Assembly (NCBI GenBank): GCA_964448075.1
Contig: CAYUUR010000002.1
Location: forward strand, 645 to 64,644
Source: an uncultured Candidatus Saccharibacteria bacterium
Lineage (GTDB): Bacteria; Patescibacteriota; Saccharimonadia; Saccharimonadales; CAYUUR01
Length of the DNA: 64,000 nt
Reading direction: 5' to 3'
Shown here: in pieces, positions 18,212-61,352 of the stretch
Layout: the number at the start of each line of letters is the position of its first letter
How positions within the stretch are numbered: position 1 is the first letter of the stretch
Program-made: the position numbers and the translations under genes
The notes under the pieces: model-generated
Told to the model about the DNA's origin: nothing
The model's input: the letters and a program-made list of their open reading frames with translations, nothing else
Database searches by the model: none

Positions 18212-18214
18212 TAA

Positions 18215-19461: not shown

Positions 19462-19476
19462 ATCAGAACTATGTGT

Positions 19477-33760: not shown

Positions 33761-33782
33761 TGAAGTATCCTTGTAGTACGGT

Positions 33783-37928: not shown

Positions 37929-37979
37929 TATAAGCCTAGTATACTACCGATCTAAATATTCCGTATTCTGTGTTAGCCC

Positions 37980-40168: not shown

Positions 40169-40402
40169 TGTTGTTCTTTTTTTGTTTTGGCTGTTTACAT
40201 CAGTAATATTACCACAAAAAAGTACTAAAGTCAAACTGTAGGGACCCGACCTTCTGCGCACGGCTGCGGGCTTTCTCGGAGCGAGCTCCTGCGAGAGCCC
40301 TTGCCGACCGAACTGGCGATTCGCGTATTTGCAGAGCAAATCCGCATCGCAGACAAGTCTGCCCAATGAAAAAGCCCAGTCGCAAGGACTGGACTCTTTC
40401 AT

Positions 40403-48000: not shown

Positions 48001-51000
48001 CGACCGCGCTGTAGCACTATTTTGTTCAATATAGAGGTACGGGTTACCAGAAACAGTGCCAGTCGTAAACGTACAGGTTGCACGCGTCCAGCCAGTGGTA
48101 TATGCAAACCCTGTAGCAAAACAGTCAGACTCAGTCGAACCATCACTAGCATAGCCTGCCCCGAGAGTTCCGTTCAGCAATACAGAAGTTCGAACGTTAA
48201 ATGACAGTGAGTAGGTCGTGGAACTCGTGAGCGTAATTGGGTATTTCACGCCATCACCACTCACCGCCGTCGTATCGAACTTCATTGATTGAGCGCCAGA
48301 GTAACGCTGAGCGTCGGTTTGGTGGACTCGGCTGGTTGAACCCTTTACCTGCCAGCCAGATGGAGCAGTTACTGCCTTGAAGCTCACCTTGTCTACGACA
48401 ATATAACGAGCTGTTGCATCAGTTTGCTTGATATAGAGGTATGGCGTACCGCTGACCGTAGTCGTCGTGACGATACAGTGATACTGCGCCCAGGTTGTAC
48501 TAATTGAGGAACTATTGAGGGTACAGTTAGATTCTGTTGAACCGTCATTGGCGTACCCTGCCGCCAACACAGAGCCGCTCCCCGCTACCGTTCGTGCCCA
48601 GAAGGTCAATTCATACGCCGTACTGTTAGGCAACGTCATGTTATATTTGGCACCATCGTTGGCAGCCGCGGTGGTTGTCAGCACCATCGATTTACTCTTG
48701 TCGTACACATAGGTGCCATCATACCCAATCGAGCCAGCACCCTTAGCTACCCAGTTACCCGAATCAGTCTCAAAGCTTGGGTTATTCATGAGATTGCTGG
48801 AGTCACCTGCTTCAAAGCCGCTGTTACTAATCAGATTGAATTGATTAACAGATGTGTCAACCTTGATAACGCTGTCACCTTCACTGTTTGCGACCGATAG
48901 TGCGCTACTGCTCGTTCCCTGCAATAACGCTCCAGAGAAGCTGGAATTGCCCGTGCTACTTGGTGGCGCCGAGTTAGTAACCCAACTAAGCGTTCCGTCA
49001 TCAACCAAACTACTCCTCGTCACTTCAACATACTGCGATAGTGACGTCCCAGAAATACAGTTGGCGCTCGGACATCGATAAACCCGGTATTTGGTCGCAC
49101 CCGGCACGGTGTTCCAGGTCATCCCTACAATATTATCTGCGGTCAGTGCATTACCTGTGGTCACCGTAAAGACTTTTTCATCACTCGGGTTGCTCTCGCC
49201 ACTCGTGTTGATCGCTGTTACGCGATAACGGAAGGTGTTGCCGGAGGTAAGCGTACCATCCGGCACTTCAGCATTGCTTACTTGACGGAAGTTAGACGGT
49301 GCAGCCAGTTCAGTTATGCTGAACGATCCACCATATTGGGTGTAACTGGTGTCGACAGTCAAGGTATTGTTTAGCTTTACACCCCGGTCGAGGAAGCCAA
49401 TGAGACTGGATGCGACGTCCGCGTTACCCTTATCGCTGAGATGTAGACCGTCCATTGTACCAGCGCCACCAGCACCATTATTATAGAAGCCTTCGCTCTC
49501 TGCCCAGCTAAAGTCACCACCCCACTTGCGCCACAAATCCAAGATGCCACAGCCGTTTTCGTCAGCTAGCTGATAAATGACATCTCGGTAGGACTGCACA
49601 CCAAAGACAGAGGTATCATCTCCCGTCTGCGGTGCTGGGATAATCAGCACACAGTCTGCCGGATCGCTTGACGCCTTGGCTTGACCTATCCATTTTTGGT
49701 AGGACTCTTTGAATCCTTGTGGCGTGGTGTTTGTGCCCTGTTCGTTTGTGCCGTATGCAAAGACCACGAGGTCGGGTCGTGGATCAAACACACCAATCGC
49801 CGAATCGTATGCATTGAATGTACCGTGCGTATACGTACTGGAGGTCGCCATGTTATTAACCCGGATACCTGTATCAAACGTCGCATCAATACCTTCGAGG
49901 TTAATACACTCGTAACCATTGCCACCATTGCCGTCATCAGGGACCGTGATACTCAGAGTGTGGGTTTTTTGCGGATCAAGATCGGCTACATTGACTCGGT
50001 TACCATAACTCAGCGTTGCGCCATTTGTTGTAACCGTACCAGTTGCCGCACCACCATCAACACTATAGTAGAACGAATCAAGGCCAATGAATGAGCTCTC
50101 TGTGTATTGGATGGCTAGATTATTACCACGGAAGTTAATCGTCAGCTCCGCCAGCCCACTCACCGTATTACACACTAGCAATGCACCACCCGCCGCCCCA
50201 CCGTTGCCAAGTGCGTATGATCCATAACTGCCCTGGGTGAACAATCTATTATCATAGGGCTTCTGGAAGCCCGTGCCACCGTCACCGTATTTTTCCTTCA
50301 AAGCTTTTTCTACCAAGGCCGGTGTACTCTTTACTGCCCGGTCAGAACCTGCCAGACCCCACGTAATGCTGTCACCGATAAAGTTGACGACCACCGCTTC
50401 GCTGTTGGCATTAGCCAAAGCACCACGGAAGTGTTTAAGTGACTCGTCAATGTTATAGGTGAAGTCTTTGATGCCTTGCTGGTCGTTACCGCCCAAGTAC
50501 TCAACATTTAGGTTTTCTACCAAGGCAGTTGAAGTAACGGTAATTGGTGGCGTACCCTGTGGCGCGGCTAGCTTGATGTTATTGGTTATGATGCCCGCAC
50601 CCACAAAGCCAGTTTTTTGCGGTCGGTTAACGGTCAACTGGTTGTCGGCCGTGTTGTCGGTGTAGGTTGTGGTCGAGTTATTGGCAATGGTACCGACCAG
50701 CATGAATGGCCCCGTAACGTTATCGTTGATTGGCTGAGCAAGAATGTTGTTTTGAGGAGTTAGGAACGAACGATAAATCTTACGCGCTACTGTTCCTGGA
50801 GGCCCAGCCGATATGCTGGTCAGACTCGCCTGCTGACCTGTGCCGTCAGGTGTCACTGTGCCTGACATAGTACTGAGCGCACTTTCTGCGCCACTGGCAT
50901 TCACATAGCTATATGCCCAAACATATTTTAGGTTCTGAGTAAGGTTACCCGCTGATGTAATAAGACTCGCCGATGGTGCAGCCGGGCGGTTAGAAGTGTT

Positions 51001-52665
51001 CTCGCTGGTTGGCGGCTTAATGTTCGTGTTCAATGAGCCATCGCCATTATTGTCATCTCTTTGACTGACTGATGGGTCAGTAATCGTTCCGCTGGTATCG
51101 GTTGAAGTTCCCGTCAAGCGAAGTGTTGGGTTGTAATAATACGTACTACCACCTGATTGCGTTCGGTAGACACGCATGGCGCTGACATTCTTGACACCAC
51201 CAAACGGCATTTCCTTCAGCGATATGCCATTTGAAGACGCTGCAAAGGTATTGCTAACTGGCCCGGCGGCAGTTTCACCCCACGGCGTCACATAGGTCAG
51301 AACATATGAATAGTTACCAGTGAGTGCGCCCGCTCCAGCTGAACCAACGAGCGGACCAACTTGTGGCGGTGCAATCGGCATTGGCGGAGCATACGTCAAT
51401 GATGTATCGGCTGTGTCATCTGTATAAGTTGTTGTTGTATTGTCAGCAATCTCAGTCAGGAACCTCCAGCCAGTCGTGACACCATCAACTTGCCGTGTGG
51501 TACGGTAGATCTTTCGTGATTTTGTACCTGCAGGACCGGTTGGTATAGCGGTCAGATCAACTTGTTTACTGGCTGGCGCAACACTACTACTGGTCGGGCC
51601 AGGCAAAGTTTCACCGGCGAACGTTGTGTACGTTACTACGTATGTATACGTTCCGTTCAAGTTACCTGCCGTTGCGCTTGCTGTTGCTGTCAGCGCAGAG
51701 GCTGGAGGATCCAGCGCTGCAACGATGTTACCACCTGCGTCTACCCGCCCCATTACCTCGCTTGAGCTGTTCAAGTATCGTTGCAAATCACCGGTCTGTG
51801 CCGCGCTATTGCCTTGGATAACGGAGACTATTTCTGAAGCACTCGTGCCCTGCACCTGCAGGCTTGCTGTTGGGGCAGCGTTGTTAATTCCAACACGCTT
51901 ATTAGTCGTATCAACGTCAAATATTGTTGCCGAACCGGCCGCGTTCTTTACCTGCAACGCTGTTACTGCGTCAGTCTGTGGTTTGAATAACAACGATCCA
52001 GCGTTATCTATAACGAGCACGTCGCTACCACCGCGTTGCAGTTGAAGTATGTCGCCGCTCGCTCCAGTTTTGTTTATTCCAATTGAGTCATTTGAGCTTG
52101 CATCGACCTGCAATGTACCTTGACCGAGCTGCACGATCTCGTCTTTCGTCAGTCCTCCTAAACGTTTAGCATTTTTTGCATATGGCGTTGCACTGAAACG
52201 CGTAAATGGAAGCATTTCGCCATCCCAAGATGGGCTACCGGTGCCGCCAACATCAATCGATAACCACAAGCTGTCCTGGTTCCAGTCGACATTAGTTGAA
52301 AATGCAGTTACTGAGCCAAGATACACAGAAAAGTAGCCATTTTTGACCCGTACCTTGTTAGTACTGTCCCTGGTTTCTGTCCATTCAAGTGTTCCACCAC
52401 AAGGTGATGAGCCTGAAACTTCACAGCCGTCACCATCTTGGTACACCTTAAAACGTAGGTTATAGAATCCATCGGGCACAACTGCACCAGTGTCATCAAG
52501 CAATCGAGCCTGAAAGTTAAGCTGTTCATTGATACCAGTAGAATTATAAGTTTTACTTCGGTAGAGCTGAGTGCTCACCGCTGATATGGCCAAAATCAGA
52601 GCAAGCACGCATATCTGCACTTTCCTACTCTTCCACCAGTGTTTTTTGAGCCGTATGTTGTTCAT
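42061..52665 (-). CDS. giant (3534 aa) secreted/anchored multidomain surface protein, adhesin- or tail-fibre-like
   Basis: Single uninterrupted ORF with an N-terminal signal/TM. Fn3-like repeats (YRYRVTAINTSGESNPSDE), an SGNH/GDSL hydrolase motif (NFIGDSITWG), tandem CBM-like jelly rolls (NPSFE...GSTES.C...PYLYI), a Gly/Ser/Thr-rich fibrous region, a LamG-like domain (NQWHHVVALN) and a conserved C-terminal module (ALSGRVPVKV...TSSSIPGHGMKA). Confidence 0.9.
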   Translation of the reverse strand: MNNIRLKKHWWKSRKVQICVLALILAISAVSTQLYRSKTYNSTGINEQLNFQARLLDDTGAVVPDGFYNLRFKVYQDGDGCEVSGSSPCGGTLEWTETRDSTNKVRVKNGYFSVYLGSVTAFSTNVDWNQDSLWLSIDVGGTGSPSWDGEMLPFTRFSATPYAKNAKRLGGLTKDEIVQLGQGTLQVDASSNDSIGINKTGASGDILQLQRGGSDVLVIDNAGSLLFKPQTDAVTALQVKNAAGSATIFDVDTTNKRVGINNAAPTASLQVQGTSASEIVSVIQGNSAAQTGDLQRYLNSSSEVMGRVDAGGNIVAALDPPASALTATASATAGNLNGTYTYVVTYTTFAGETLPGPTSSSVAPASKQVDLTAIPTGPAGTKSRKIYRTTRQVDGVTTGWRFLTEIADNTTTTYTDDTADTSLTYAPPMPIAPPQVGPLVGSAGAGALTGNYSYVLTYVTPWGETAAGPVSNTFAASSNGISLKEMPFGGVKNVSAMRVYRTQSGGSTYYYNPTLRLTGTSTDTSGTITDPSVSQRDDNNGDGSLNTNIKPPTSENTSNRPAAPSASLITSAGNLTQNLKYVWAYSYVNASGAESALSTMSGTVTPDGTGQQASLTSISAGPPGTVARKIYRSFLTPQNNILAQPINDNVTGPFMLVGTIANNSTTTYTDNTADNQLTVNRPQKTGFVGAGIITNNIKLAAPQGTPPITVTSTALVENLNVEYLGGNDQQGIKDFTYNIDESLKHFRGALANANSEAVVVNFIGDSITWGLAGSDRAVKSTPALVEKALKEKYGDGGTGFQKPYDNRLFTQGSYGSYALGNGGAAGGALLVCNTVSGLAELTINFRGNNLAIQYTESSFIGLDSFYYSVDGGAATGTVTTNGATLSYGNRVNVADLDPQKTHTLSITVPDDGNGGNGYECINLEGIDATFDTGIRVNNMATSSTYTHGTFNAYDSAIGVFDPRPDLVVFAYGTNEQGTNTTPQGFKESYQKWIGQAKASSDPADCVLIIPAPQTGDDTSVFGVQSYRDVIYQLADENGCGILDLWRKWGGDFSWAESEGFYNNGAGGAGTMDGLHLSDKGNADVASSLIGFLDRGVKLNNTLTVDTSYTQYGGSFSITELAAPSNFRQVSNAEVPDGTLTSGNTFRYRVTAINTSGESNPSDEKVFTVTTGNALTADNIVGMTWNTVPGATKYRVYRCPSANCISGTSLSQYVEVTRSSLVDDGTLSWVTNSAPPSSTGNSSFSGALLQGTSSSALSVANSEGDSVIKVDTSVNQFNLISNSGFEAGDSSNLMNNPSFETDSGNWVAKGAGSIGYDGTYVYDKSKSMVLTTTAAANDGAKYNMTLPNSTAYELTFWARTVAGSGSVLAAGYANDGSTESNCTLNSSSISTTWAQYHCIVTTTTVSGTPYLYIKQTDATARYIVVDKVSFKAVTAPSGWQVKGSTSRVHQTDAQRYSGAQSMKFDTTAVSGDGVKYPITLTSSTTYSLSFNVRTSVLLNGTLGAGYASDGSTESDCFATGFAYTTGWTRATCTFTTGTVSGNPYLYIEQNSATARSVYIDAISLTAGSTALSYTAGTLAFSGAIDTALLIRPRDDTTTAFEIQNAAGTPLFTADTLSSRVAVDGALYVGDPGLISILTTALEVRENFTSARDCLFGCYGGYIGATITNPTNPTSVVGLRVAAATGAATFTVPTAYGLYVDGVSEGAGSTITTAYSLFVGGNTAAGSNYTAALGASSTQTLWIANDQADPTTSAAGIAFGTSRDTNLYRGAANQLKTDDALNLVSTASSALLVQSASAAETVMTVDTATRSGSGGNRVKIGNSTGTDTATTILQLDGTTADPTSNLSALSGGLFYDSTLNKVKIIENGVVKTVCNTTDAGCGAGGSGARLDQVTAATTGASINNAANNVVWNWQLTAAESGFTFTENAASTGGGAQDQFITDIATLSGSTASPLRVTSASVDAADIVYNLASAGDIEFQDNGTAFMTLSDTGAYSYTLDATDNPAYTITNNGSGNVVTNLAGTGDYIIQDNGTTVFTIADNGKIDTAFTSTNTTAADDYSLKVSVSDTGIVTTGTDNTYGQQLVVARSGATGGTINTFGLDLTVSGDNAGTGTSTVKGINVLAGGNAFGSADYIYGLSGGVIGVAGGDVVKAVGVSGAVSSVFFGGTMTDAYALEGGIGMAGGGTVTTAAGLQINSATVSGATIANNYGIRVAAQSVGSTDYGVRIDAADTQTLWLSGNADNTTASAGIAFGSSRDTNLYRSGVATLKTDGTFQVGSATSPGQIDLYGDLVKKGISKQTGLTGISDIFVYDTTKDSDVGAWTDSPTSRALSWYSESKNDGYGDACNIASDTRCGSSAFPKKAIIVSTSSAVYIFDANDYKMFMKFNQNASGYAIGVDTNNDPSSVFALNGVVYVGANGSAAGGLYAIDFTSDRLFNYNTTDRDQGDKNIANRNTAVTYNIDSRTAMAIRHNAVNAVHGSVLYGSSSVETNGGPLNGATFIAAATDDSMSVINLSAQQTLDFGDNLTDQFSSVYVTKRGRLYGLNVTLSQVERYGTQANGTVGIDVAKADQATPTDVFDEQAANLPHVANGAAAPTFAVGAPDALKVMERASMADDAADLIYVGHSAGLTEVHDTNTASGTSIGWSKNYNISRETGYMSGTQRGMFSFDNLSGDLTDATIRNSVLEPEVAPTYGVNGVHGTGLRFNGTSQFLCSDANNDGTCDTDADFNVAAISFHVEAWFKHSATVTGTDVLIDKRYSAFAGTEGIGYTVEMNSSGQIVFGIQDTAATAGYDDSVTSTQTYNDNQWHHVVALNTDTGICLYLDGKLAVGCDTTLGATGTLDASQILTIGADASGAAGGNFWDGDIDDVYFASGGATTSDTLSQAQIRKRYLEGRSALAKPSTVVSAATTSSSTTIGDSGESYVTNAFVGSMVEITGGTGAGQSRRVIANDGTTLTVSPAWTVTPSTDSNYEVVPEKLYGDTNTVTSIALNNSNFLGTNPDLYVGTSNGSDGGAVSVFGGYGNSFISNLYHSDAGVTDTTSTSWSGTDADDIDAFSVESGVVAMGSSANVWFEKFDRNLEQDVDKFFSNVSSIRGELIVDGMAGVSSEVGGVGGADLAERFTSFESLTAGEIVSSEDNNVGVVRRTSQPYDDKALGIVATQPGIVIGPQEDNSYPIALSGRVPVKVALKPNEKIKSGDRITSSSIPGHGMKAVAAGRVVGVALEDVNPDTLIDCPEGSPDNLRCTTITVFVNLVDYSGQKVEVAMEEFQDSGFTLPDTVLGPLVNLQEGVLDEKLQKSDEIIRYLLGRKQQQVATDEPQSEILADRVSALEVNGLSIIAKDITADSIKANKIEGLEILVGKLTGKPTTGTNTSTTTGTVTPAIDMDNFIVKTATVSKDLTIDGVLFANGALEVAGPVKFLGASIFYRLATFVDTVIFQKDVQIEGRLTQNNDSAGFATIYKTQKKVKIEFEKPYEDTPVVTVNIKNGKFTQFAYDDLDEEGFTIILSEDATEDIEFAWTAVSVKDAKTVDVPLQSQN

Positions 52666-52813
52666 GTTTGTCTACGTTTAAACGTAACCACATTGTAACT
52701 TGCTCACCCCTTAAGCACAAGGGAAACACCCCTGTTATTGAAATAGGTTATCCACAGGTAAATGTCGTATACATTATTTGTTCGATTTGTAAATTTTGAA
52801 CATTTCTGCGGTT

Positions 52814-53905
52814 TTAGCGAACAACACCTTTAACAATTAAACTGATTGCGATCTTCTCTCCGATCCAAAAACTAAATGTCATTATTGTAACGAGTGCAAA
52901 AGCTGGCCATACCCTATTTGCGCCATCAACAATTTGGTTCTGAAAGATACAAACCGCATCCAACTGACAGCGCTGAGTTAGATTACCTGTTGCAGAAAGG
53001 TTTACTGCCGTCTTACCATCAACGACAACAACCGTCTGAAAGATAGCGCTACTACCACTTGCATCTGTTACGGCAATCTTGACCTCGTACTGACCTGATG
53101 TCTTATAGGTGTGCTTTATTCGCTGATCGCCACCCCCAGAAAACGTAAGCTTTGAGGTTTCACCGTCACCCCAGTCAACCGTAACATCGTACGGCGCTTG
53201 GCCTTTTTGGATACGAAACGTCAGAACCACCGTCTTTGTCGACTGGCTCACACGAAAGAAATTCTTGCTTTTGATAGTAACGCTGGATGTATTTACGACT
53301 GGGGTTTGGCTATTCTGATTGTTCGGCGCAACGGGTTCTGGCTCGACTGTCGGCTCAATTGTCGTGTCGTAAAATACAGTTATCGTAGTGGAGTCTGGTC
53401 CATATTGGTTAAAGATATCTGTAGTCCGAACAAGTAAAACATTACTACCGGGAACCAAACTGACGCCTATCTCATACAACCCATTTGAGTCACAGGTAAC
53501 AGAACCTGCCAATACTGCATTACGGTACACTTCAACGATATAGTCGTGTTCACAAGATCCTGATACGGTAACCAACGCCGAGGTTACCGTAGCGTTACTA
53601 GTTGGTGAACTAATCGTCGCAGGAATACTCGGTGGCGGCCCTGGTACTACCCCACTCAAAGTAACACTGCCAGAATCTGTCACGGTCTGACCACTTACGA
53701 CAACGTGCCGAATAAGAAAAACACTAAGCGCAGAAAGAACAATCAGAAAGAACAGTAACGCGTAAGATGTCTCATGGAATGCTATTCTTTTGCCGGTATG
53801 CCTACGGTGACTGACGTGAATTGGGCGGCGTTTTTTCTGAGACGACGCTTTGACGATACTCGCGCTACGCTTGGTTGCCTTTTTTGCCATCGCGCTTTCG
53901 CCCAC
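52814..53905 (-). CDS. PKD-domain, Ig-like membrane-anchored surface protein
   Basis: Basic N-terminus plus TM, Ig-like segments, a PKD motif (VTVDWGDGETS...HTYKTSGQYEV) and a C-terminal TM. Confidence 0.65.
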   Translation of the reverse strand: MGESAMAKKATKRSASIVKASSQKKRRPIHVSHRRHTGKRIAFHETSYALLFFLIVLSALSVFLIRHVVVSGQTVTDSGSVTLSGVVPGPPPSIPATISSPTSNATVTSALVTVSGSCEHDYIVEVYRNAVLAGSVTCDSNGLYEIGVSLVPGSNVLLVRTTDIFNQYGPDSTTITVFYDTTIEPTVEPEPVAPNNQNSQTPVVNTSSVTIKSKNFFRVSQSTKTVVLTFRIQKGQAPYDVTVDWGDGETSKLTFSGGGDQRIKHTYKTSGQYEVKIAVTDASGSSAIFQTVVVVDGKTAVNLSATGNLTQRCQLDAVCIFQNQIVDGANRVWPAFALVTIMTFSFWIGEKIAISLIVKGVVR

Positions 53906-54875
53906 TTTTACCTTGTGCTTTATTGACGATGTATTGGTTGTAGCGTTTGACGAAAATCACCAGCAACAGCACACCGCCAAGGAAGATAGCAATCAACTTG
54001 TATGGGATAACCCAGAAAGTCATTGAATCTGAGACGATGTTGTTTTTCTCTCCGTAAACGACGTCAGCCTGAACCGTATAGCGGCCAAAAAGTAGCTTGT
54101 TGCTCAATTCTTGCTCAAATTTTCGAGTACTTCCTGGTAATACATTTCCGCCGTTTTCATTGAGAGAGAACGTCTCTACTTCACGTCCGAAGATATTGCT
54201 GACCCGTACGGTACCTGAGGGTTTAAAGAACACGTTGCCAGTGTTTTTGATTCTCTCTGTTATCATAACCGGGCCGTATTCAAATATGCTGCGTCTCTTA
54301 CCATTTTGAGAAGTGAACAATTCACTTACTTCTGCACTTTCCGTAGTATTGCCCGAAACATTCACAAGCATCAACGTTCCGACACTTGCAGATAGTGAGA
54401 CTCCTGTGTCTTCAAGTTCTGGAGGTGTTCCTGTAAAACGAATGACCCCAAAATGACCTCCCGGACTGGCATTGTCAGGAACCCGCAATGTTACTTTAAC
54501 TGATTTTTGCTCACCTGTTTTAAGGGTGATTGTTGGGATTGAAACGATCCAAGATTTAATCGAGTATGGGCTTTCCTCATCCGCATCTAACAGTAACTTC
54601 GGCTGACCATCTTCACCATTGGCGACAAAGTCATTGACCTGTGCCTTTATCACGAGTGAATCTTGCGTGACATTGCGAACACGAATGGTTGAATTAATTA
54701 CCTTGCCTGGATCGGCCTTTAGTTCAATCAGCGGAGGAGAAATCTCCAGACCCTGCCCACTTTGGGCATGACCAATATTGGGAGCCACAAACAGTAGTAA
54801 CAAGATAGAAGCACTTGCAACAATACTCAACACTCTCTTCATACTAGCCGATGTCCCTCTTCCCCAAATTCTCAT
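53865..54875 (-). CDS. secreted Ig-like beta-sandwich protein with a C-terminal TM anchor and KR-rich tail
   Basis: Signal peptide (ILLLLFVAPNIGHA), beta-rich body, C-terminal TM (LIAIFLGGVLLLVIFV) and KRYNQYIVNKAQGKSGRKRDGKKGNQA. Confidence 0.55.
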   Translation of the reverse strand: MRIWGRGTSASMKRVLSIVASASILLLLFVAPNIGHAQSGQGLEISPPLIELKADPGKVINSTIRVRNVTQDSLVIKAQVNDFVANGEDGQPKLLLDADEESPYSIKSWIVSIPTITLKTGEQKSVKVTLRVPDNASPGGHFGVIRFTGTPPELEDTGVSLSASVGTLMLVNVSGNTTESAEVSELFTSQNGKRRSIFEYGPVMITERIKNTGNVFFKPSGTVRVSNIFGREVETFSLNENGGNVLPGSTRKFEQELSNKLLFGRYTVQADVVYGEKNNIVSDSMTFWVIPYKLIAIFLGGVLLLVIFVKRYNQYIVNKAQGKSGRKRDGKKGNQA

Positions 54876-54897
54876 TGATAACAGTATATCAGATTAA

Positions 54898-55974
54898 CTA
54901 GAAGGTTGCGGTTGCAATATACGTCATAGTTGCAGTATATGTACCGGCCTCTGTTGCTGTATCGATATTGGCAATATAGGCTACCTGATAGCGACGAAAT
55001 GACTCAGATGTTCCCTTGCTCGCAACACTATCAGCCGTAACAAAACGGAACTGATCAACAGTGTTATAGGACGCAGTTGGCGTACCCGAGCCAGCACCGT
55101 CAGGGTCTGCACCAATATTAGGGGTAGCGTTGTCGCGCAGGTTGATTCCAAATTGTTCAGTTCCGGTTGTTGACGCAGTTTGAGAGGCAAGCGCCGAAAT
55201 CGTATTACCACCCGAGGTGAGCGTTGCGCCATTAACCGTAATCGCATAACCGCTTCCTCCGTTTGTACCTACGCCCATTTGCGACAAACCAGTACCGGTA
55301 GTGCTTGGTGTCAATGTACCAAGAGATACTGCAGAACCAGTCGCGCCAGAACAACTACTGGTTGTAATGCCGCTCGTGCCAGTACAGAACGTAAGTGTCT
55401 CGTCAACGGTAGCACTCACAGTGATCTGTTGCGCAGTACTCGCAGCAACAACACCGGTATCAACACTTGTTGTCCATGCAGCATCGGAGAACGTACTAAT
55501 ACGGGCGAAGAATGTGGTGTTTTGAGCTGTTGGGTTGGTGATTCCACCAAAGACAACCGTTTGTGAGCCAGTTGGTGCAGCAACGTTACCACTCTTAGAG
55601 ATACGCAGGCTACCCGCTGTGGAGGTGTTAACCGTCCAGCCGGTAGCATCACCAAGGTTGGTTGGCTGTGAAGCAAGTGTTGAACTAGAGTTAACAAAAC
55701 CAGAAGGAGTGGAACATGCGCCTGAGGCTGTCGTACAAATCTGGGCTTGCATTGATTGGAGTACAGTCGCAGATGGTACGGTAAAGTTAAATGTATACGT
55801 AACGCCCGTGCCCGCTCCGGCGGAGTTTGAAAGAGTAACTTTACGTGCGGTTATTTGGGCTGCAGAGACCTGCGCGTTAAAGACAGACTGGAGCGCAAAA
55901 ACAGCTAAAAAAACAGCTATCAACAGATACGTTACTTGCTGAACTTTCTGCTGTGCGTAAATGGTTTTTGACAT
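54898..55974 (-). CDS. Thr/Ser/Gly-rich secreted protein (paralog A)
   Basis: Signal peptide. About 30% T/S/G. Shares TEQFGINL(R/V)(D/A)N and a C-terminal (T/G)TY(T/S) motif with the next gene. Confidence 0.55.
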   Translation of the reverse strand: MSKTIYAQQKVQQVTYLLIAVFLAVFALQSVFNAQVSAAQITARKVTLSNSAGAGTGVTYTFNFTVPSATVLQSMQAQICTTASGACSTPSGFVNSSSTLASQPTNLGDATGWTVNTSTAGSLRISKSGNVAAPTGSQTVVFGGITNPTAQNTTFFARISTFSDAAWTTSVDTGVVAASTAQQITVSATVDETLTFCTGTSGITTSSCSGATGSAVSLGTLTPSTTGTGLSQMGVGTNGGSGYAITVNGATLTSGGNTISALASQTASTTGTEQFGINLRDNATPNIGADPDGAGSGTPTASYNTVDQFRFVTADSVASKGTSESFRRYQVAYIANIDTATEAGTYTATMTYIATATF

Positions 55975-56040
55975 GTTTGATTATTACCTTAAGTACTTTG
56001 CTAAATTGTACTATACATTATAAGCATAAACAACAATTTT

Positions 56041-56781
56041 CTAGTATGTGCCGATACAGACGAGCGTTTGTTCACCACTGTATGTACCGCCAGCCGTAGT
56101 GTTAGCGGCGTTTATGATGTAGGACATCGTGTACTCAGTGAGGCCAGAGCTCGCTGCAGCCGAAGCTATTGTCTCACCAGCAACATACCGAAAGTTGTTG
56201 GCGGTATTGTAGTTACTAGCTGCTGCCCCGGATGAGAAACTGCTATCCGGCGTCTGTTCAGGGTTGTCGCCAAACGTTGTTGGCGAAGTATTGGCAACAA
56301 GATTGATGCCAAATTGCTCAGTACCGGGTACTGAAGGTCCGGTTGAGTTCATGCCGGCCAGCGTGTAAGCGCCTGTACTAGGTGGACTGCCGACTATTTG
56401 CACGATGTATCCGTATGACGTGTAATTAAGAACACTGAATGTTGCGGTGGCGGTGGCGGCGACTGAGGTGGAAAGAGCACCGAAGTTAACATTTGCGGTA
56501 TCAACTGTACAGCTCAGCGATGGATCGTTAGTCGATATTGGACCACTGTCCGCTTTGTAACTGGTTGAACCACTCGGCCCACCACCAACACCATTCACAG
56601 CTTGTTGACCCGGTGCAGTACCATAGTTAGTGGAATTGCTCTCGAGGCTACCGCCTGGCCCCACAAATGACTCTTCGATCTGGAAGTTACTCGACGAACT
56701 CTGCGCCACGACCAAACCAACAGATAGATTAATAGCAGCAACAACGATGCCCAAATAGATCAATACCCTCTTCATCTGCAT
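56041..56781 (-). CDS. Thr/Ser/Gly-rich secreted protein (paralog B)
   Basis: Signal peptide. Shares TEQFGINLVANTSP and the NFRYVAGE/QFRFVTAD region with paralog A. Confidence 0.55.
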   Translation of the reverse strand: MQMKRVLIYLGIVVAAINLSVGLVVAQSSSSNFQIEESFVGPGGSLESNSTNYGTAPGQQAVNGVGGGPSGSTSYKADSGPISTNDPSLSCTVDTANVNFGALSTSVAATATATFSVLNYTSYGYIVQIVGSPPSTGAYTLAGMNSTGPSVPGTEQFGINLVANTSPTTFGDNPEQTPDSSFSSGAAASNYNTANNFRYVAGETIASAAASSGLTEYTMSYIINAANTTAGGTYSGEQTLVCIGTY

Positions 56782-56827
56782 CTATTATACGGATTGTACC
56801 AAACCAGCGCAAAGCGCTTATGGCTAA

Positions 56828-57931
56828 CTATTTATCGATTGAAACGTAGACTTGCGCGGCCTGCTTGTCTTTGAGGTCATTGATATACGTAGAGAGGTCT
56901 TTAAAATTAAAGACGATGTGAGCCCCTTCTACCTTGTCATCGTTTTTGCTAAGTGTCTTCACGATCTCAAGGCTGTAACCAGTGTTGATGATTTCGGAAA
57001 CTTCGCCGGGATTTAGCCGAAACAGCGCATCGGTGGTCTGTGCACTGATGTCCCGGTTAGCCTTATCAATCGTAAAACCAAACTTGCCGCCACGTGCCTT
57101 ACTGACATCATCCTCAGAATACTGCTTGGCAACGTCTTCGAACTTCTGCCCAGACTTCACGAGTGCAAAGGCCTTCTCGGCACGTTGGTTGGTGTCCGTA
57201 TCGATCGCGGCGATTACCTTTTGTTCAAGCAAGCGCTGCTTAATCACGCGCCTGAAGTCATTAACTGTCCAGCCAAAGTTCTGTTTCAAGGCGTCTTCAT
57301 AGGCTTGTTCGCTACCGCCTAGTCTGTTCTGACGACGCAAGATTGTTATCTGGTCGTCAACTTCGGCGTTACTGACAGAAACATTGTTCTGCTTGGCGAG
57401 TTCTTTGACGTAGGCGTCATTCACTACCTTGTCGAGTGCGCGCTTTTTATACTCAGTGAGCTGTTGTTGGCCAGCCTCAGAGTTAAAGTCCAGTTTCTGC
57501 TGGTTTTCGTAAAAGAACGTGTAATGACGGAGTTCAAACAGATAGTTTTCGTATGCCACGAAGCGTGAGCCAGTCTTTGCAACCGGAAACGGCACCACCT
57601 GAGTAACGCGGTAAATAAAGCCTGACGTCGTGTCAAACCGGTACAGTGCAGCTAGACAGTAAGCAAAGAATACGACAGCCAAACTAATGATGATACCCGT
57701 AGATATCAAAACAATACGATGTTTTGAATGCTGCAGTGGGTAGATGTACTTACGGGCACTGCCAAGCACCTCTTCGCGGTGGGCCGCAACGGTCTCGTTT
57801 GTAATCTTGGGCGCCGCAGTAGATTCAGCTGCAGGAGCCTGTTTTTTGCGATTTAGTATTTTTTTAATTCTCTTCTTCATAAGCCTCGTCATCAGTACCG
57901 TATTCATTTTGCATATACGGCTCAACCCCAT
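56828..57931 (-). CDS. prsA: membrane-anchored parvulin-type peptidyl-prolyl isomerase (PrsA/SurA-like foldase)
   Basis: N-terminal TM, SurA-N-like helical domain and a parvulin signature (FEDVAKQYSEDDVSKARGGKFGF). Confidence 0.75.
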   Translation of the reverse strand: MGLSRICKMNTVLMTRLMKKRIKKILNRKKQAPAAESTAAPKITNETVAAHREEVLGSARKYIYPLQHSKHRIVLISTGIIISLAVVFFAYCLAALYRFDTTSGFIYRVTQVVPFPVAKTGSRFVAYENYLFELRHYTFFYENQQKLDFNSEAGQQQLTEYKKRALDKVVNDAYVKELAKQNNVSVSNAEVDDQITILRRQNRLGGSEQAYEDALKQNFGWTVNDFRRVIKQRLLEQKVIAAIDTDTNQRAEKAFALVKSGQKFEDVAKQYSEDDVSKARGGKFGFTIDKANRDISAQTTDALFRLNPGEVSEIINTGYSLEIVKTLSKNDDKVEGAHIVFNFKDLSTYINDLKDKQAAQVYVSIDK

Positions 57932-58469
57932 GCTCTCGCAAAATCTCAGCTATCTGTTTCTGAATCTTTGCGGGATGATGGATGTCTTTTACTACTAAAT
58001 CTCCAATATAAGTTTGTATAAGTATTGTACCAAATCCCAGCATGGTTTCCTGTAATCCGGCAATTTCGTAGTTCAGTGATTTTATCTGCTGCAGACTGAT
58101 GTCTACGACTGACTTATGGAACAGGCCTTTCTGGCTAACCTGAATAAAACGCTGGTCAGTAACTATGAATACACTGAAGTACCAGCTAATCCACGCCGGC
58201 ATAAACAAGACAATCATCAGGATGAACCCGGCAGCTAAACCACCAAAAAAATAGCTATACTCAGGCTTTACCAGCGCTGGGAGCGTTCCTAGAAGCAAGC
58301 CAATCATACCTAGTACCAGACCCTTACGCATAACCACTGGGTGGCGGCGAAAAACCAAAAGAACCTCCTCGTCATCAAACTGATCATCGAAGTATTTAGC
58401 TTTTTGTGGTACTGCGTTCGCCTGCTTGGCTGTTTTTGCCATAGCATTAGCGTAATTGTTTTTGTACAA
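57864..58469 (-). CDS. bacterial PH-domain (bPH_2/DUF304, YdbS-like) membrane protein
   Basis: Two TM helices followed by FIVTDQRFIQVSQKGLFHKS...SL, a bPH_2-like segment. Confidence 0.6.
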   Translation of the reverse strand: MYKNNYANAMAKTAKQANAVPQKAKYFDDQFDDEEVLLVFRRHPVVMRKGLVLGMIGLLLGTLPALVKPEYSYFFGGLAAGFILMIVLFMPAWISWYFSVFIVTDQRFIQVSQKGLFHKSVVDISLQQIKSLNYEIAGLQETMLGFGTILIQTYIGDLVVKDIHHPAKIQKQIAEILREHGVEPYMQNEYGTDDEAYEEEN

Positions 58470-58480: not shown

Positions 58481-58557
58481 TGGTGACCCGGGAGGGATTC
58501 GAACCCCCGACGCCCGCCTTAGGACGGCGGCGCTCTATCCAGCTGAGCTACCGGGCC
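58481..58557 (-). tRNA. tRNA-Arg (anticodon CCT)
   Basis: Minus strand GGCCCGG-TAGCTCAGCTGGATAGAGC-G-CCGCC-GTCCTAA-GGCGG...GGGGG-TTCGAAT-CCCTC-CCGGGTC-A-CCA. Confidence 0.88.
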
Positions 58558-58619: not shown

Positions 58620-59177
58620 CTAAGCGTGCGTAAGGCCTTCATGGACTGTGGTGTAGTCAAACTGTTCACTCTCGTCAAACCACATGCTAATCTCTTGCTT
58701 TGCTTCGTCAACAGAGCCTGAGGCATGCACCAAGTTTGCTGCACCTTTCCTCTTAAGTGAAGCCCTACCGAGACTCAAGTGCGCATAATCGCCACGGATA
58801 GTTCCTGGGGCTGAATCTTTAGGTCCAGTACTTCCGACCATCTTCCGTACAACTTCTACGGCGTGGCCACCCTCCAAGACTAGCGCAATCACAGGAGCAC
58901 TGTGCATATACTGACGAGTTGCCGTAACGATCATTTCACCAATTTCTTCAATCGTCTCGCTGTATTCAACACCATAACTATCCCAATCAGTTTTTGTTTT
59001 GCCACCAACAATCGGCACTAAGTCATCGGGGTAGTGTTTCTTAAGGAGTTCCATCCCCGGAATCATCATCTTCATGCTCACAATCTTTAGTCCTGCTCGC
59101 TCAAACCGCGCAATAATTTCTCCTGCAAGTCCGCGTTGTACTGCATCTGGTTTGAGTATTACTAATGTTCGTTCCAT
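58620..59177 (-). CDS. ndk: nucleoside diphosphate kinase (long-form)
   Basis: RTLVILKPDAVQRGLAGEII and NLVHASGSVDEAKQEISMWF (active-site His), with an internal insertion. Confidence 0.9.
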   Translation of the reverse strand: MERTLVILKPDAVQRGLAGEIIARFERAGLKIVSMKMMIPGMELLKKHYPDDLVPIVGGKTKTDWDSYGVEYSETIEEIGEMIVTATRQYMHSAPVIALVLEGGHAVEVVRKMVGSTGPKDSAPGTIRGDYAHLSLGRASLKRKGAANLVHASGSVDEAKQEISMWFDESEQFDYTTVHEGLTHA

Positions 59178-59289: not shown

Positions 59290-60213
59290 ATGTTGTTTAC
59301 AAAGGCCAAAACCGATTTTCTGGAGTATCTCGAGATTGAACAGAACCGTTCACAGAAGACTATTGCCAACTACGACCATTACCTCACCCGCCTCAGCGAC
59401 TACGCTGGTGACATCAAAGTCGCCGACATCGACCCGGAGCTCGTCCGCAAATGGCGTCTCTGGCTCAACCGCTTAGGCACCAATGTCAGTGATGAGCTGC
59501 AAAAATCTACCCAGAACTACCACCTCATAGCCCTACGGAGCTTCCTAAAATATTGCGCCAAGCGCGACATCCCTACCCTCGCGCCAGATAAGATCGAACT
59601 AGCACGCACCAAGCGAAAACAAGTCACCTTTCTGAACGCAGAAGAAGTCCTAACTCTTTTTAAACAGCCTGACGTAGCGACACTATCGGGTTTACGCGAC
59701 CGAGCCATCTTAGAGTTGCTGTTTTCGAGCGGGCTACGCGTGTCTGAGCTTGTGGGCCTCAATCGCGACCACATCAACCTCAAACGACGCGAGTTCATGG
59801 TACGTGGTAAGGGCCAGAAAGACCGACCAATCTTTATCAGTCCGGAGGCCGCGGCGTGGGTGGAACAATACATCGCAAAACGAGAAGACACATTGCCGGC
59901 GCTATTCATTCGGCACGGTCGCGGTGGAGCCAAAGCCGTTAATACTTCTGGTAACTACAACCGCCTCACCGCCAGAAGCATCCAACGCATGGTGGCACGT
60001 TATGCCCTGCTGGCTGGCATAACCAAGCATGTATCGCCTCATACACTGCGGCACAGCTTTGCTACTGACCTCCTGATGAACGGCGCCGATCTACGCTCAG
60101 TACAGGCTTTACTCGGCCATAGCAACATCGCAACCACACAAATCTACACGCACGTTACCGACCCGCATCTCAAATCCGTTCACGAAAAATACCACCGCCA
60201 CCAGCAAGATTAG
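59290..60213 (+). CDS. xerC: tyrosine site-specific recombinase, XerC/XerD-like
   Basis: SAM-like N-domain plus catalytic R...HxxR...Y (RHSFATDLLMNGADLRSVQALLGHSNIATTQIYTHV). Confidence 0.85.
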   Translation: MLFTKAKTDFLEYLEIEQNRSQKTIANYDHYLTRLSDYAGDIKVADIDPELVRKWRLWLNRLGTNVSDELQKSTQNYHLIALRSFLKYCAKRDIPTLAPDKIELARTKRKQVTFLNAEEVLTLFKQPDVATLSGLRDRAILELLFSSGLRVSELVGLNRDHINLKRREFMVRGKGQKDRPIFISPEAAAWVEQYIAKREDTLPALFIRHGRGGAKAVNTSGNYNRLTARSIQRMVARYALLAGITKHVSPHTLRHSFATDLLMNGADLRSVQALLGHSNIATTQIYTHVTDPHLKSVHEKYHRHQQD

Positions 60214-61352
60214 TATGGTAGACTAGAGAAATTTTCAAGCTTACAACTCTCTGTCGTACGAGGATCAAGCTGGTATGGACCACTCGTACTGCCACTAATT
60301 GGCGCGCCGAGACTAACTTCACTATCGCTCGGCCAAGTGTTAAACCGCTTACAGATTGATTCAAAGGCTTCAACAGCGAATTCAGGATAGACAGAGCTAC
60401 CTGTGGTCAACGGAACACTCACTTTTATTCTACGTAGAACATCGGCAGCCTTGCCAGTTGCGTCAATCTCAGCTTGGGCATTTGCCAATTCTAACGGTGT
60501 ATTGCTCCCTGCCGCAAACGCCTGTACGGTGACATTTACGCCATTGTAGATGGCCTTAAGGCGCAGGAAAGCCGACGCACGGCTCACATTTGTGATCTCG
60601 ACGCTACAAGGGTTTGGTGCGCCGTTTGTATCGCAATTGCCTTTTAAGAACTTACCCTGTGCAGTGCGATCGGTATTGTACGCTGTACTGTTAACACCAG
60701 AAACGACCGAAGCATCATTCGGGTACAAAAACGCATGGAAGGATTGGGCAACTAAATCGTCACGATCGGTTGTGTCTGGTATAAGCATAGCCCTGACAAC
60801 CCCGGTGGTATTACCCCATTTGTTAGGGCCAGATCCATTAGGCACTAGTAAGTTGCCGTTAATCGATGCTGCATCGGTCACGAATGGCGCACTGTTATCT
60901 GTTGATCCCCAGCTGATAACAATCCTATCGATTTGCTGGCCATTGGCGGACTGCACCTTAGTTACCCATGAGCTGTCTGTCGTATCAAGCTTCTTAGACA
61001 AAATATCTGGAGTCGTATCGATCAGGAGACAGCTGACACTCACGTTCGTATTGACGCCAATAGCACCGCCACCGCTGGCAATCGGTGAATTGTTGGCTGC
61101 ACAGTCGTTAATCTCAAGCACATCGTTGCTGGCTATTGCAGCATCAACCGCATCACGCGCGATGTTTACGCCACTCTCAGCCGCATAGAAAGCCTGTGTG
61201 CTCAACTGCTGGTCAAGCGCCTGGCGCTGCTCACGACGCATCAGATTAGCAAAGCCCACGGCAATAAGCGTCACAATACCAAGGATAATCAACGTTACCG
61301 TGATTGCCGCCATGCCTGACTCATTTGACTGTAAGCGCTTATTTTCTGTCAT
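60210..61352 (-). CDS. PilX-like minor pilin / pilus-associated protein
   Basis: N-terminal hydrophobic PilX-N-type segment (GMAAITVTLIILGIVTLIAVGFANLMRREQ) and a Ser/Thr/Asn-rich ectodomain. Confidence 0.55.
   Translation of the reverse strand: MTENKRLQSNESGMAAITVTLIILGIVTLIAVGFANLMRREQRQALDQQLSTQAFYAAESGVNIARDAVDAAIASNDVLEINDCAANNSPIASGGGAIGVNTNVSVSCLLIDTTPDILSKKLDTTDSSWVTKVQSANGQQIDRIVISWGSTDNSAPFVTDAASINGNLLVPNGSGPNKWGNTTGVVRAMLIPDTTDRDDLVAQSFHAFLYPNDASVVSGVNSTAYNTDRTAQGKFLKGNCDTNGAPNPCSVEITNVSRASAFLRLKAIYNGVNVTVQAFAAGSNTPLELANAQAEIDATGKAADVLRRIKVSVPLTTGSSVYPEFAVEAFESICKRFNTWPSDSEVSLGAPISGSTSGPYQLDPRTTESCKLENFSSLPY

Follow-up and report, generated by a model that had tools for sequence, protein, structure and literature searches.

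A compact Pam pilus operon predicted in a Saccharibacteria genome, with a chaperone of the DUF916 family

Four minus-strand genes, at positions 52,814-56,781 of the 64,000 nt stretch of DNA that was analysed (the window), very probably make up a Pam pilus operon of minimal size in a genome belonging to the Saccharibacteria (CPR/Patescibacteria). With the same high confidence, its parts are one PamT tip pilin, one two-domain shaft pilin, one chaperone and one PamR-like terminator or anchor. The block belongs to a known kind, being a compact version of the recently described CPR Pam pilus operon. A 2026 preprint describes the Pam system of Ca. Mycosynbacter amalyticus, whose filaments, resolved by cryo-EM, consist of PamA and PamB subunits joined through donor-strand exchange (bioRxiv 10.64898/2026.03.03.709456). 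The same preprint reports the likeness of PamC and PamD to fimbrial chaperones, notes a 'tail fibre-like protein' as a central node of pam neighbourhoods, and proposes how the parts assemble, PamT lying at the tip and PamR at the base; this order rests on AlphaFold complexes, not experiment. The NCBIfam models for this system are NF058578 (CPR_pilus_PamR), NF058579 (CPR_pilus_PamT) and NF058581 (CPR_Pam_pilin_C).

The original prediction had placed seven consecutive genes on the minus strand, and all seven are present in the ORF listing at the coordinates below. They form, as had been proposed, a co-directional set encoding exported or membrane-anchored surface proteins. The features, in the direction of transcription, are:

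58,481-58,557, minus strand: tRNA-Arg(CCT) (ARAGORN; Rfam tRNA, 57.9 bits)
57,864-58,469, minus strand: bPH membrane protein, 201 aa
57,954-58,184, minus strand: PH domain of the bPH protein, aa 96-172
56,828-57,931, minus strand: parvulin (PrsA-type), 367 aa, longest ORF
56,041-56,781, minus strand: PamT-type tip pilin, 246 aa
54,898-55,974, minus strand: two-domain Pam shaft pilin, 358 aa, with a signal peptide at aa 1-38
55,438-55,860, minus strand: nine-strand beta-sandwich N-terminal domain (NTD) of the shaft pilin, aa 39-179 (AF2 model)
55,396-55,437, minus strand: linker of the shaft pilin, presumed donor strand, TAQQITVSATVDET, aa 180-193
54,901-55,395, minus strand: acceptor C-terminal domain (CTD) of the shaft pilin, aa 194-358
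53,865-54,875, minus strand: putative Pam chaperone, 336 aa, longest ORF
54,432-54,725, minus strand: DUF916/WxLIP_PGBD Ig-like domain of the chaperone (Pfam PF06030)
53,907-54,002, minus strand: C-terminal TM helix of the chaperone, then K/R tail
52,814-53,905, minus strand: PamR-like protein, 363 aa, longest ORF, with PKD_4 at aa 234-292 (Pfam, 32.4 bits) within Ig/PKD-like domains, and a C-terminal hydrophobic helix at aa ~332-357
53,630-53,671, minus strand: conserved strand motif of the PamR-like protein, GSVTLSGVVPGPPP, aa 79-92, after the N-terminal signal-anchor
42,061-52,665, minus strand: giant protein, 3534 aa
51,856-52,665, minus strand: conserved N-terminal module of the giant protein, aa 1-~270
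49,423-49,857, minus strand: GDSL/SGNH esterase domain of the giant protein, aa 937-1081 (Pfam Lipase_GDSL_2, E 4.8e-13)
44,062-44,493, minus strand: LamG/ConA-like lectin domain of the giant protein, aa 2725-2868 (Pfam Laminin_G_3, E 6.9e-15)

The co-directional tRNA gene lies between ndk and the bPH gene, at the upstream edge of the string. The bPH/parvulin and chaperone/PamR genes do overlap, but the spans originally given (57,864-57,931 and 53,865-53,905) stem from choosing the longest ORFs. Candidate start codons, and the genes as called on near-identical contigs, point to shorter overlaps. The parvulin probably starts at 57,907, reducing the first overlap to ~44 nt (the gene is called as 359 aa on related contigs), and the PamR-like protein probably starts at 53,890, reducing the second to ~26 nt. 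The most likely start of the chaperone is at 54,842, giving a protein of 325 aa, to which the relative P0001 is 100% identical. The remaining spacers measure 46, 66, 22-55 and 148 nt, and none of the spacers contains a terminator-like hairpin on the minus strand, with scan counts no higher than in shuffled sequence. No usher-like or further Pam genes were found elsewhere in the 64 kb window.

Synteny, which had been suggested as a check, proved to be conserved. The comparison set consisted of 58 species-level loci, nearly all of which carry the label Saccharibacteria or Patescibacteria. The order PamT, one to five pilins, chaperone and PamR recurs across the set, PamR following the chaperone in 53 of the loci. 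Because the full order of PamT, pilin(s), chaperone, PamR and giant gene recurs across these 58 loci, the arrangement is not attributable to chance.

The 246 aa protein scores 272.8 bits against the PamT equivalog (cut-off 240) and 158.9 bits against the pilin C-terminal model (cut-off 55). It consists of a signal peptide and a single Pam pilin C-terminal (acceptor) domain at aa ~94-246, with cysteines Cys91 and Cys242 and no N-terminal beta-sandwich domain. The 358 aa pilin scores 170.9 bits against the C-terminal model (cut-off 55), but as it matches this domain model alone, it is not assignable to PamA, PamB or PamE. Its AF2 model (pLDDT 90.3) has nine NTD strands, an unstructured linker and then the CTD, the layout that the preprint gives for PamA and PamB; the whole model matches only generic two-Ig-domain adhesins in Foldseek. 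More than 1876 relatives were found, and conservation within the family peaks at the junction between linker and CTD, with the top 15-mer at aa 190-204; the cysteine pairs 80/87 and 197/208 are both conserved. The original prediction that the two proteins are paralogs holds for their C-terminal ~123 aa (34% identity, E 1e-16), although in the direction of transcription they precede the 336 aa protein, which they had been said to follow. The WxL-like C terminus suggested as a check for them was not found: the Pfam WxL domain is absent from both paralogs and from 40 relatives at E<=1, and neither paralog has a W-x-L motif, an absence already noted in the original prediction.

The 336 aa protein models as a membrane-anchored, PapD/FimC-like Pam chaperone of the DUF916 family. 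The AF2 model (pLDDT 86.2) contains a signal helix, two Ig-like beta-sandwiches and a C-terminal TM helix, in agreement with the architecture first read from the sequence. The guess that this was a DUF916 protein was also borne out: it scores 28.6 bits against Pfam WxLIP_PGBD (cut-off 27.3), a match found in 40/40 and 104/128 members of two sets of its relatives. The best Foldseek matches were CfaA, RbmA, EfmWxLIP, CsuC, DraB, Caf1M and FimC, with E values of 1e-7 to 4e-10 for the fimbrial chaperones CfaA, CsuC, DraB, Caf1M and FimC, and of 6e-10 to 2e-9, over both domains, for Enterococcus faecium EfmWxLIP (9i1y, 9i25). The model thus matches both EfmWxLIP and the fimbrial chaperones, and EfmWxLIP1 ranks second and third among PDB sequences (E 0.015) with a CPR-only profile. 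None of the NCBIfam Pam models matched the chaperone, and the DUF3324/WxLIP_HBD HMM had no matches in 168 scanned members of its family. Going by the order of accession numbers, it appears to occupy the position of PamD. The 'secreted paralogs' and 'Ig-like anchored protein' of the original description were correctly recognised as exported or anchored, but are more exactly the predicted polymerising pilus subunits and their chaperone.

The 363 aa protein matches the PamR model with an E value of 7.3e-62 over model positions 6-288 of 297, its 208.9 bits falling short of the equivalog cut-off of 300 bits. Most of 51 PamR-like ORFs share the strand motif near the N terminus and a C-terminal 'WP...FWLGE' helix; PamR relatives have PGPPP after the strand motif and a C-terminal membrane helix.

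By analogy with the M. amalyticus work, all four core proteins would be exported by Sec, with the chaperone tethered in the cytoplasmic membrane through its C-terminal helix. A strand donated by the chaperone would cap the incomplete Ig-like CTD of each subunit, and polymerisation would proceed by donor-strand exchange, the NTD-CTD linker strand of each incoming pilin taking the place that the chaperone's strand had occupied in the subunit before it. PamT, which has an acceptor domain but lacks the shaft-pilin NTD, would hence be found at the tip, whilst PamR, which lacks an acceptor domain but has a conserved N-terminal strand and a membrane helix at its C terminus, would stop growth and tie the fibre to the membrane. 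Assembly would need no usher; such usher-less donor-strand exchange is likely, judging from the M. amalyticus preprint. Chaperone-usher pili (Pap/Fim, CFA/I class 5, archaic Csu, Caf1) share the two-Ig chaperone fold, the Ig-like subunit domain and the proposed donor-strand exchange, and the tip, shaft and terminator recall FimH, FimA and FimI. However, here there is neither outer membrane nor usher, the chaperone is predicted to be membrane-tethered, and the donor strand would be, as the preprint describes for Pam, the internal linker of a two-domain pilin rather than an N-terminal extension. No Pfam PapD or fimbrial HMM matched.

Compared with M. amalyticus, the PamT equivalog, the Pam pilin C-terminal domain in both paralogs, the two-domain pilin with nine-strand NTD, conserved linker and paired cysteines, the PamR-like N-terminal strand and C-terminal TM helix, the lack of an usher, the Saccharimonadia-type CPR host and the large fibre-like gene nearby are all shared, as is, by description, a FimC/PapD-like two-Ig chaperone with a C-terminal TM segment. 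However, M. amalyticus has three shaft pilins (PamA/B/E) and two chaperones (PamC/D), whereas there is one of each here; hence details of that system, such as its two filament types, are not transferable. The mature pilin of ~320 aa is smaller than PamB (38.7 kDa) and PamA (55.3 kDa), the PamR-like protein falls below the equivalog cut-off, no ATP synthase genes were seen in the annotated parts of the window, and the bPH and parvulin genes directly upstream are unmentioned in the preprint.

The original bPH, PrsA-type parvulin and PKD assignments agree with the Pfam matches. In the bPH protein, two hydrophobic segments (aa 45-104) precede a bacterial PH domain that scores just over the cut-offs (bPH_3, 24.6 bits against 23; bPH_2, 22.4 against 22). 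The parvulin has a single N-terminal TM segment (aa 73-96), a SurA_N_3 domain (E 2.5e-12) and a rotamase domain (aa 244-329, E 3.7e-14). It shares with PrsA and PpiD parvulins the rotamase, the SurA_N_3-type chaperone domain and an outward-facing, membrane-attached placement, but falls far below the cut-offs of all NCBIfam equivalogs, including PrsA and SurA. Bacillus PrsA is anchored through a lipobox; none was found here, where the TM helix instead follows a basic cytoplasmic tail of ~70 aa. The bPH and parvulin genes are always paired, but the pair adjoins PamT in only 13/45 loci. They are hence clade-specific neighbours lying outside the core operon, and not the conserved parts of the system that they had been taken for; the parvulin, not conserved with the pam genes, probably serves exported proteins generally as a foldase.

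The giant protein is an N-terminally membrane-anchored, fibre-like surface protein and a candidate adhesin/esterase, conserved in its N-terminal module and variable beyond it. The protein has one hydrophobic segment (aa 13-36), and also matches a GDSL structure at E 0.0024. A homologue of the N-terminal module (32-70% identity) directly follows PamR in 41/51 loci, whilst aa 400-1200 are matchless across all compared loci.

The block had originally been likened, loosely, to the Csc/WxL-type complexes of Firmicutes. The Csc/WxL clusters of Lactobacillales comprise a small WxL protein, a large WxL protein, a WxLIP (DUF916-DUF3324-TM) and often an LPXTG protein. If the block were of this type, the small and large proteins would be kept on the wall non-covalently by a membrane-tethered WxLIP, forming an adhesion platform instead of polymerising into a pilus. 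The likeness is genuine as regards the DUF916 domain, the superposition on EfmWxLIP over both domains and the pairing of a TM-tethered two-Ig protein with a small CTD-only protein and a large one with extra N-terminal domain(s) (PMC10599100, PMC9772566); furthermore, WxLIP was predicted by AlphaFold2 to insert a beta-hairpin strand into WxL (PMC10599100), a likeness to donor-strand complementation. However, WxL domains, W-x-L motifs, DUF3324 HMM matches and LPXTG motifs or sortase substrates are all missing; hence this is not a Csc/WxL cluster. Moreover, the loci belong to CPR bacteria instead of Firmicutes, and anchoring is proposed to be through the membrane helix of PamR rather than by peptidoglycan binding. 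The subunits fit the NCBIfam Pam models and their M. amalyticus homologues polymerise into long filaments, as seen by cryo-EM (bioRxiv 10.64898/2026.03.03.709456), whereas none are reported for WxL proteins in the literature examined. A Csc/WxL-type complex is accordingly considered very unlikely, and the original wording, 'analogous but distinct', is a fair summary, the more precise identity being a Pam pilus operon.

Similarly unlikely is the original proposal of a dedicated machinery, made up of the six genes upstream, that would fold, export and display the 3534 aa protein; in it, the parvulin would fold the giant whilst the chaperone, 'pilins' and PamR would form a stalk or socket. The adjacency part of this proposal stands: the giant gene is co-directional, with no terminator-like hairpin in the spacers, its pattern is typical of conserved attachment modules that carry variable distal parts, and the preprint has its 'tail fibre-like protein' as a central node of pam neighbourhoods. 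However, the giant has its own hydrophobic anchor and lies beyond the 148 nt spacer, which holds a promoter-like match; no similarity was seen between its N-terminal module and the pilin profile (hhalign probability 18%), nor, by eye, any donor-strand-like motif of PamR or pilin type in the module. The M. amalyticus filaments consist of PamA and PamB alone, and most pam loci lack the adjacent parvulin and bPH genes. That the genes are mere neighbours without a common function is scarcely credible and disfavoured. The order PilX, Xer, Ndk, bPH, PrsA upstream is kept in the closest relatives, which shows that the clade has local backbone synteny, but the core order also persists in distant loci with other flanks (for instance MarR upstream in L007), and the proteins fit together coherently as subunits, chaperone and anchor.

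As a Pam pilus operon, the block offers only two fresh points: the link between Pam and WxLIP proteins, and the conserved N-terminal module of the giant protein. The thin pilus would probably be the first structure to touch the host bacterium, and the giant, a conserved neighbour of the pam operon, is on the basis of synteny probably a partner in that contact.

All seven of the minus-strand ORFs predicted to run from 58469 down to the giant surface protein gene are present at those coordinates in the ORF listing, and they were correctly described as a co-directional surface system. What the original prediction missed is that the block very probably encodes a pilus: it conforms to the Pam system of CPR bacteria in every respect examined, save that one protein falls below the PamR equivalog cut-off.

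Genes of the pam block and its edges
57864-58469, minus strand, bPH protein, 201 aa
56828-57931, minus strand, parvulin, 367 aa; likely later start at 57907
56041-56781, minus strand, PamT, 246 aa
54898-55974, minus strand, shaft pilin, 358 aa
53865-54875, minus strand, chaperone, 336 aa; likely later start at 54842
52814-53905, minus strand, PamR-like PKD protein, 363 aa; likely later start at 53890
42061-52665, minus strand, giant surface protein, 3534 aa
58481-58557, tRNA-Arg(CCT), at the upstream edge of the gene string
58620-59177, ndk, at the upstream edge of the gene string
41120-42064, plus strand, ORF resembling a class A beta-lactamase or serine hydrolase (E 3e-18 for NCBIfam bla_class_A, well short of the cut-off)

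The two gene overlaps described for this string do exist, but their size is an artefact of taking the longest ORF; with the later starts, which are suggested by gene calls on near-identical metagenome contigs and by candidate start codons, they shrink to around 44 and 26 nt. A 325 aa homologue of the chaperone (P0001) is 100% identical to the protein in the window. Near-identical contigs are present in SRR16481186 and SRR16481187. The remaining spacers measure 46, 66, 22-55 and 148 nt, and at the far end the beta-lactamase-like ORF converges on the stop of the giant gene with a 4 nt overlap. A hairpin scan detected no terminator-like structure on the minus strand in any spacer of the string; the counts from the promoter and terminator scans were not above those of shuffled sequence, hence such scans constitute weak evidence on operon structure.

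The Pam assignment was made with the June 2026 release of NCBIfam, the Pam models of which derive from the preprint describing the system (bioRxiv 10.64898/2026.03.03.709456). The 246 aa protein scores 272.8 bits against the PamT equivalog NF058579, for which the cut-off is 240, and spans positions 5-241 of the 241 in the model. Both it (158.9 bits) and the 358 aa shaft pilin (170.9 bits) match the Pam pilin C-terminal domain NF058581 (cut-off 55), and the paralogy between the two, at 34% identity and E 1e-16, does not extend beyond this domain. The 363 aa protein matches the PamR model NF058578 over positions 6-288 of 297 with an E value of 7.3e-62, its 208.9 bits lying below the equivalog cut-off of 300. 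It contains a PKD_4 domain (Pfam) and has three features in common with the PamR-like ORFs of related loci: a strand-like motif following the signal-anchor (aa 79-92, with GSVTLSGVV in the window), then a spacer reading PGPPP and, at the C-terminus, a hydrophobic helix of the form 'WP...FWLGE'. These fit the proposed terminator, which would donate a strand without having a strand acceptor.

In Candidatus Mycosynbacter amalyticus, cryo-EM showed filaments composed of two-domain pilins, PamA and PamB, which donor-strand exchange holds together, and AlphaFold models were used to propose membrane-anchored FimC/PapD-like chaperones (PamC, WP_260763277.1, and PamD, WP_260763284.1), PamT as a tip pilin with one domain, and PamR as an RbmA-like terminator or anchor, with no usher; the order of assembly rests on these models only (bioRxiv 10.64898/2026.03.03.709456). 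The AF2 model of the shaft pilin in the window (pLDDT 90.3) agrees with the architecture described for such pilins, in which a nine-strand sandwich is joined by a single linker strand to a truncated Ig-like C-terminal domain: it comprises a signal helix, a nine-strand N-terminal beta-sandwich (aa 45-179), a linker modelled as unstructured (TAQQITVSATVDET, aa 180-193) and, at aa 194-358, the C-terminal domain. Two cysteine pairs, 80/87 and 197/208, are conserved, and the most conserved 15-mer of the family, aa 190-204, lies at the junction of the linker and the C-terminal domain. Searches of PDB chain sequences with the pilin and the profile of its close relatives gave no significant match, and neither PamA nor PamB was retrieved; with the whole pilin model, Foldseek yielded only adhesins of a generic kind with two Ig domains (integrins, MSCRAMMs, and CfaE/CfaB at E~1e-3). 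The chaperone model (pLDDT 86.2) has a signal helix, two beta-sandwiches, a membrane helix at aa 281-312 and a basic tail; this FimC/PapD-like fold with a C-terminal TM helix agrees with the published description of PamC and PamD.

The identities, single-chain folds, motifs and synteny come from the present analysis; polymerisation by donor-strand exchange at this locus is presumed, being carried over from the preprint. The tip and shaft pilins, their chaperone and PamR would all be exported by Sec, and the C-terminal domain of each subunit would be capped by the membrane-tethered chaperone until the linker strand of a pilin displaced it in the preceding subunit. The fibre would thus begin at its tip with PamT, and would be ended and tied to the membrane by the N-terminal strand of PamR. 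An usher would be unneeded, because there is no outer membrane.

Gene order in other genomes was studied in GTDB species representatives scanned with the chaperone alignment, which gave 58 loci among the matches listed (the M. amalyticus genome being outside this set); neighbouring genes were read by tblastn with the proteins of the window. Around 51 of the loci are labelled Saccharibacteria, Saccharimonadales/-ia, other Patescibacteria groups, Nomurabacteria or Parcubacteria, six only 'bacterium' or 'uncultured bacterium', and one belongs to a MAG labelled Gammaproteobacteria. PamT, one to five pilin genes, the chaperone and PamR follow one another in a conserved order, with PamR directly after the chaperone in 53 of the 58 loci, and two pilin C-terminal domains are encoded upstream of the chaperone in 20, the same count as in the window. 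The window locus is the minimal form of the system, with a single copy each of tip pilin, shaft pilin, chaperone and anchor, hence it represents a convenient target for reconstitution. Neither a second Pam module nor further Pam genes were found elsewhere in the window.

Some loci depart from this arrangement. One (L044, ~7677-16150) encodes PamT, a pilin, a chaperone, two pilins, a second chaperone, PamR and the giant, and another (L030, ~600-6770) a pilin, a chaperone, PamT, a pilin, PamR and the giant; these duplicated or rearranged modules recall the two-chaperone operon of M. amalyticus. Complete loci of the Saccharibacteria type also occur in MAGs labelled 'Gammaproteobacteria' (L056, CAVXAE010000002.1), 'Nomurabacteria' (L028) and 'Parcubacteria' (L034), which probably reflects binning or labelling errors and not a true occurrence outside Saccharimonadia.

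The suggestion that the foldase forms part of the system did not survive this survey. The bPH and parvulin genes are always found together, yet they adjoin PamT in just 13 of 45 loci and lie within 10 kb of it in 17; hence we rejected them as core pam components, and regard them as neighbours on a clade-specific backbone of PilX, Xer, Ndk, bPH and PrsA. In one locus (L007) a MarR gene takes the place of the pair, and in L028 the pair is downstream of the giant gene. The parvulin has rotamase and SurA_N_3 domains and scores only 34-36 bits against PrsA equivalogs with cut-offs of 343-361. PrsA of Firmicutes is a lipoprotein with its N/C chaperone domain on either side of the parvulin domain; the protein in the window is TM-anchored and no lipobox was found in it.

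The resemblance to the Csc/WxL clusters of Firmicutes, to which the block had been loosely likened, merits closer consideration. Such clusters encode a small protein consisting of the shared C-terminal domain only, a large one that has further domains at its N-terminus, and WxLIP, a two-Ig protein tethered by a TM helix, a hairpin strand of which is predicted by AF2 to insert into WxL (PMC10599100, PMC9772566); the PamT, shaft pilin and chaperone genes of the window closely parallel this logic. The idea that the 336 aa protein might be DUF916-like was borne out. Its first domain matches Pfam WxLIP_PGBD (DUF916, PF06030) at 28.6 bits, where the cut-off is 27.3, as do all 40 close relatives and 104 of 128 diverse ones (best E 2.6e-10), and some homologues in Saccharibacteria already carry the NCBI name 'DUF916 domain-containing protein'. 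The best Foldseek matches of the model in the PDB were CfaA (3.6e-10), RbmA and E. faecium WxLIP, followed by CsuC, DraB, Caf1M and FimC, and both domains of the chaperone, including the second Ig-like one, align structurally to 9i1y and 9i25. In searches of PDB chains, the chaperone and its close-relative profile found nothing significant; only the diverse, CPR-only profile of 128 members reached EfmWxLIP1, ranked second and third among all PDB sequences at an E value (0.015) that is marginal alone. The family is very large, with 9725 clusters at 50% identity for E<=1e-3 with a domain-only profile. Neither WxL nor DUF916 is mentioned in the Pam preprint (bioRxiv 10.64898/2026.03.03.709456).

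The block is nonetheless not a Csc/WxL cluster: it has no WxL domain or motif, no DUF3324 HMM match and no LPXTG motif. The W-x-L tripeptide is absent from both secreted paralogs (246 and 358 aa), as originally observed, and neither has a Pfam family at E<=1; the WxL domain occurs in none of 40 pilin relatives, among which no match to Pfam families of the WxL, fimbrial or spore-coat-U type was found, and the pilin profiles matched no PDB sequence, the 9i25 WxL chain included. DUF3324 (WxLIP_HBD) has no match in either the 40 or the 128 chaperone relatives, and no LPXTG-like motif was detected in the seven proteins, an LPXTG-anchored companion protein being frequent but not obligatory in Csc/WxL clusters. 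Classical chaperone-usher pili are likewise set apart: they employ an outer-membrane usher and a periplasmic PapD-family chaperone, which the protein in the window resembles at the level of fold only, and the seven proteins have no usher or PapD match in Pfam.

The block had also been viewed as a display machine for the giant protein, which is not supported: the giant has its own, single N-terminal hydrophobic anchor (aa 13-36), and its gene is separated by the 148 nt spacer (52666-52813). Two domains were identified in the protein, a GDSL/SGNH esterase at aa 937-1081 and a LamG/ConA-like lectin at aa 2725-2868. A homologue of its N-terminal module (~270 aa, 32-70% identity) directly follows PamR in 41 of the 51 loci with room for it.

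Conserved module of the giant gene
51856-52665, minus strand, N-module (alignment A3; consensus GINEQINFQGRLL...VKNGYFSVYLG...PYA)

Beyond these ~270 aa the protein differs from locus to locus (L009-L066) and ranges from 1817 to 3534 aa; in tblastn searches no locus matched aa 400-1200, and around 15 matched the last ~230 aa. Judged from sequence, this pairing of a conserved N-module with a variable distal part suggests a cell-proximal role in attachment or anchoring and host-specific tips, and an esterase on an epibiont surface fibre could act on lipids or acetylated glycans of the host envelope. The giant is probably the 'tail fibre-like protein' reported as a central node of pam neighbourhoods (bioRxiv 10.64898/2026.03.03.709456). 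No PHROG match attests to a tail fibre nature, the sole matches of the N-module profile, to phage hyaluronidase triple-beta-helix, were insignificant (E 0.05-0.1), and hhalign found no relationship of the module to the pilin family. In a complete-chromosome MAG (L013, the same as L003; OZ246406.1, ~12060-20340), source gene calls place small opposite-strand ORFs where the giant is expected, then a Peptidase_S74 gene; giant-like pieces are still found there by tblastn, and in this assembly the gene may be broken or wrongly called.

A series of genes resembling minor pilins of type IV pili is found immediately upstream of the pam locus, at 60210-63247 on the minus strand and perhaps extending to 63990; hence two different pilus systems sit side by side. 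The order PilX-Xer-Ndk is kept in the closest relatives. Downstream are a Fic-domain protein, a GH15-like protein beside a GT4 glycosyltransferase, and an MFS transporter; such a transporter is also noted for those pam neighbourhoods that are nearest to M. amalyticus (bioRxiv 10.64898/2026.03.03.709456). Six tRNA genes are spread across the window.

Neighbouring genes and other features
60210-61352, minus strand, PilX_N gene
61349-62041, 62038-62496 and 62459-63247, minus strand, N_methyl motif genes
59290-60213, plus strand, XerC/D-like recombinase, between the minor-pilin-like genes and the pam locus
39131-40402, minus strand, Fic-domain protein
36918-38951, minus strand, GH15-like protein, beside a GT4 glycosyltransferase
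32558-33859, minus strand, MFS transporter
15920-16271, minus strand, full-length bacterial RNase P class A RNA (261.5 bits)

A broader reading, which we offer tentatively and consider rather unlikely, is that Pam pili and the Csc/WxL clusters of Lactobacillales are two branches of one ancient, usher-less system of single-membrane bacteria based on membrane-tethered chaperones, and that the N-module of the giant serves for docking, linking a variable host-binding fibre with the Pam apparatus. The case for a common origin is that the first chaperone domain is of the DUF916/WxLIP_PGBD type, that its model superposes on both E. faecium WxLIP and fimbrial chaperones, and that the gene logic is shared. 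If this were true, WxLIP would be a donor-strand chaperone, and strand complementation might serve to assemble WxL proteins, or even to polymerise them.

As the WxLIP link and the N-module of the giant leave the basic picture unchanged, the finding is mainly the correct annotation of an already described system. Pam pili, recognised only in 2026, are thought to be the means by which some CPR/Saccharibacteria epibionts reach and hold host bacteria. Placing the chaperone in the DUF916/WxLIP family connects this pilus with the WxL clusters, adhesion systems of enterococci, listeriae and lactobacilli that are poorly understood, whilst a large, N-terminally anchored fibre/esterase protein with a conserved ~270 aa N-module emerges as a near-constant neighbour of PamR. 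The connection from Pam to WxLIP, and the conserved N-module of the downstream giant, are the aspects worth following.
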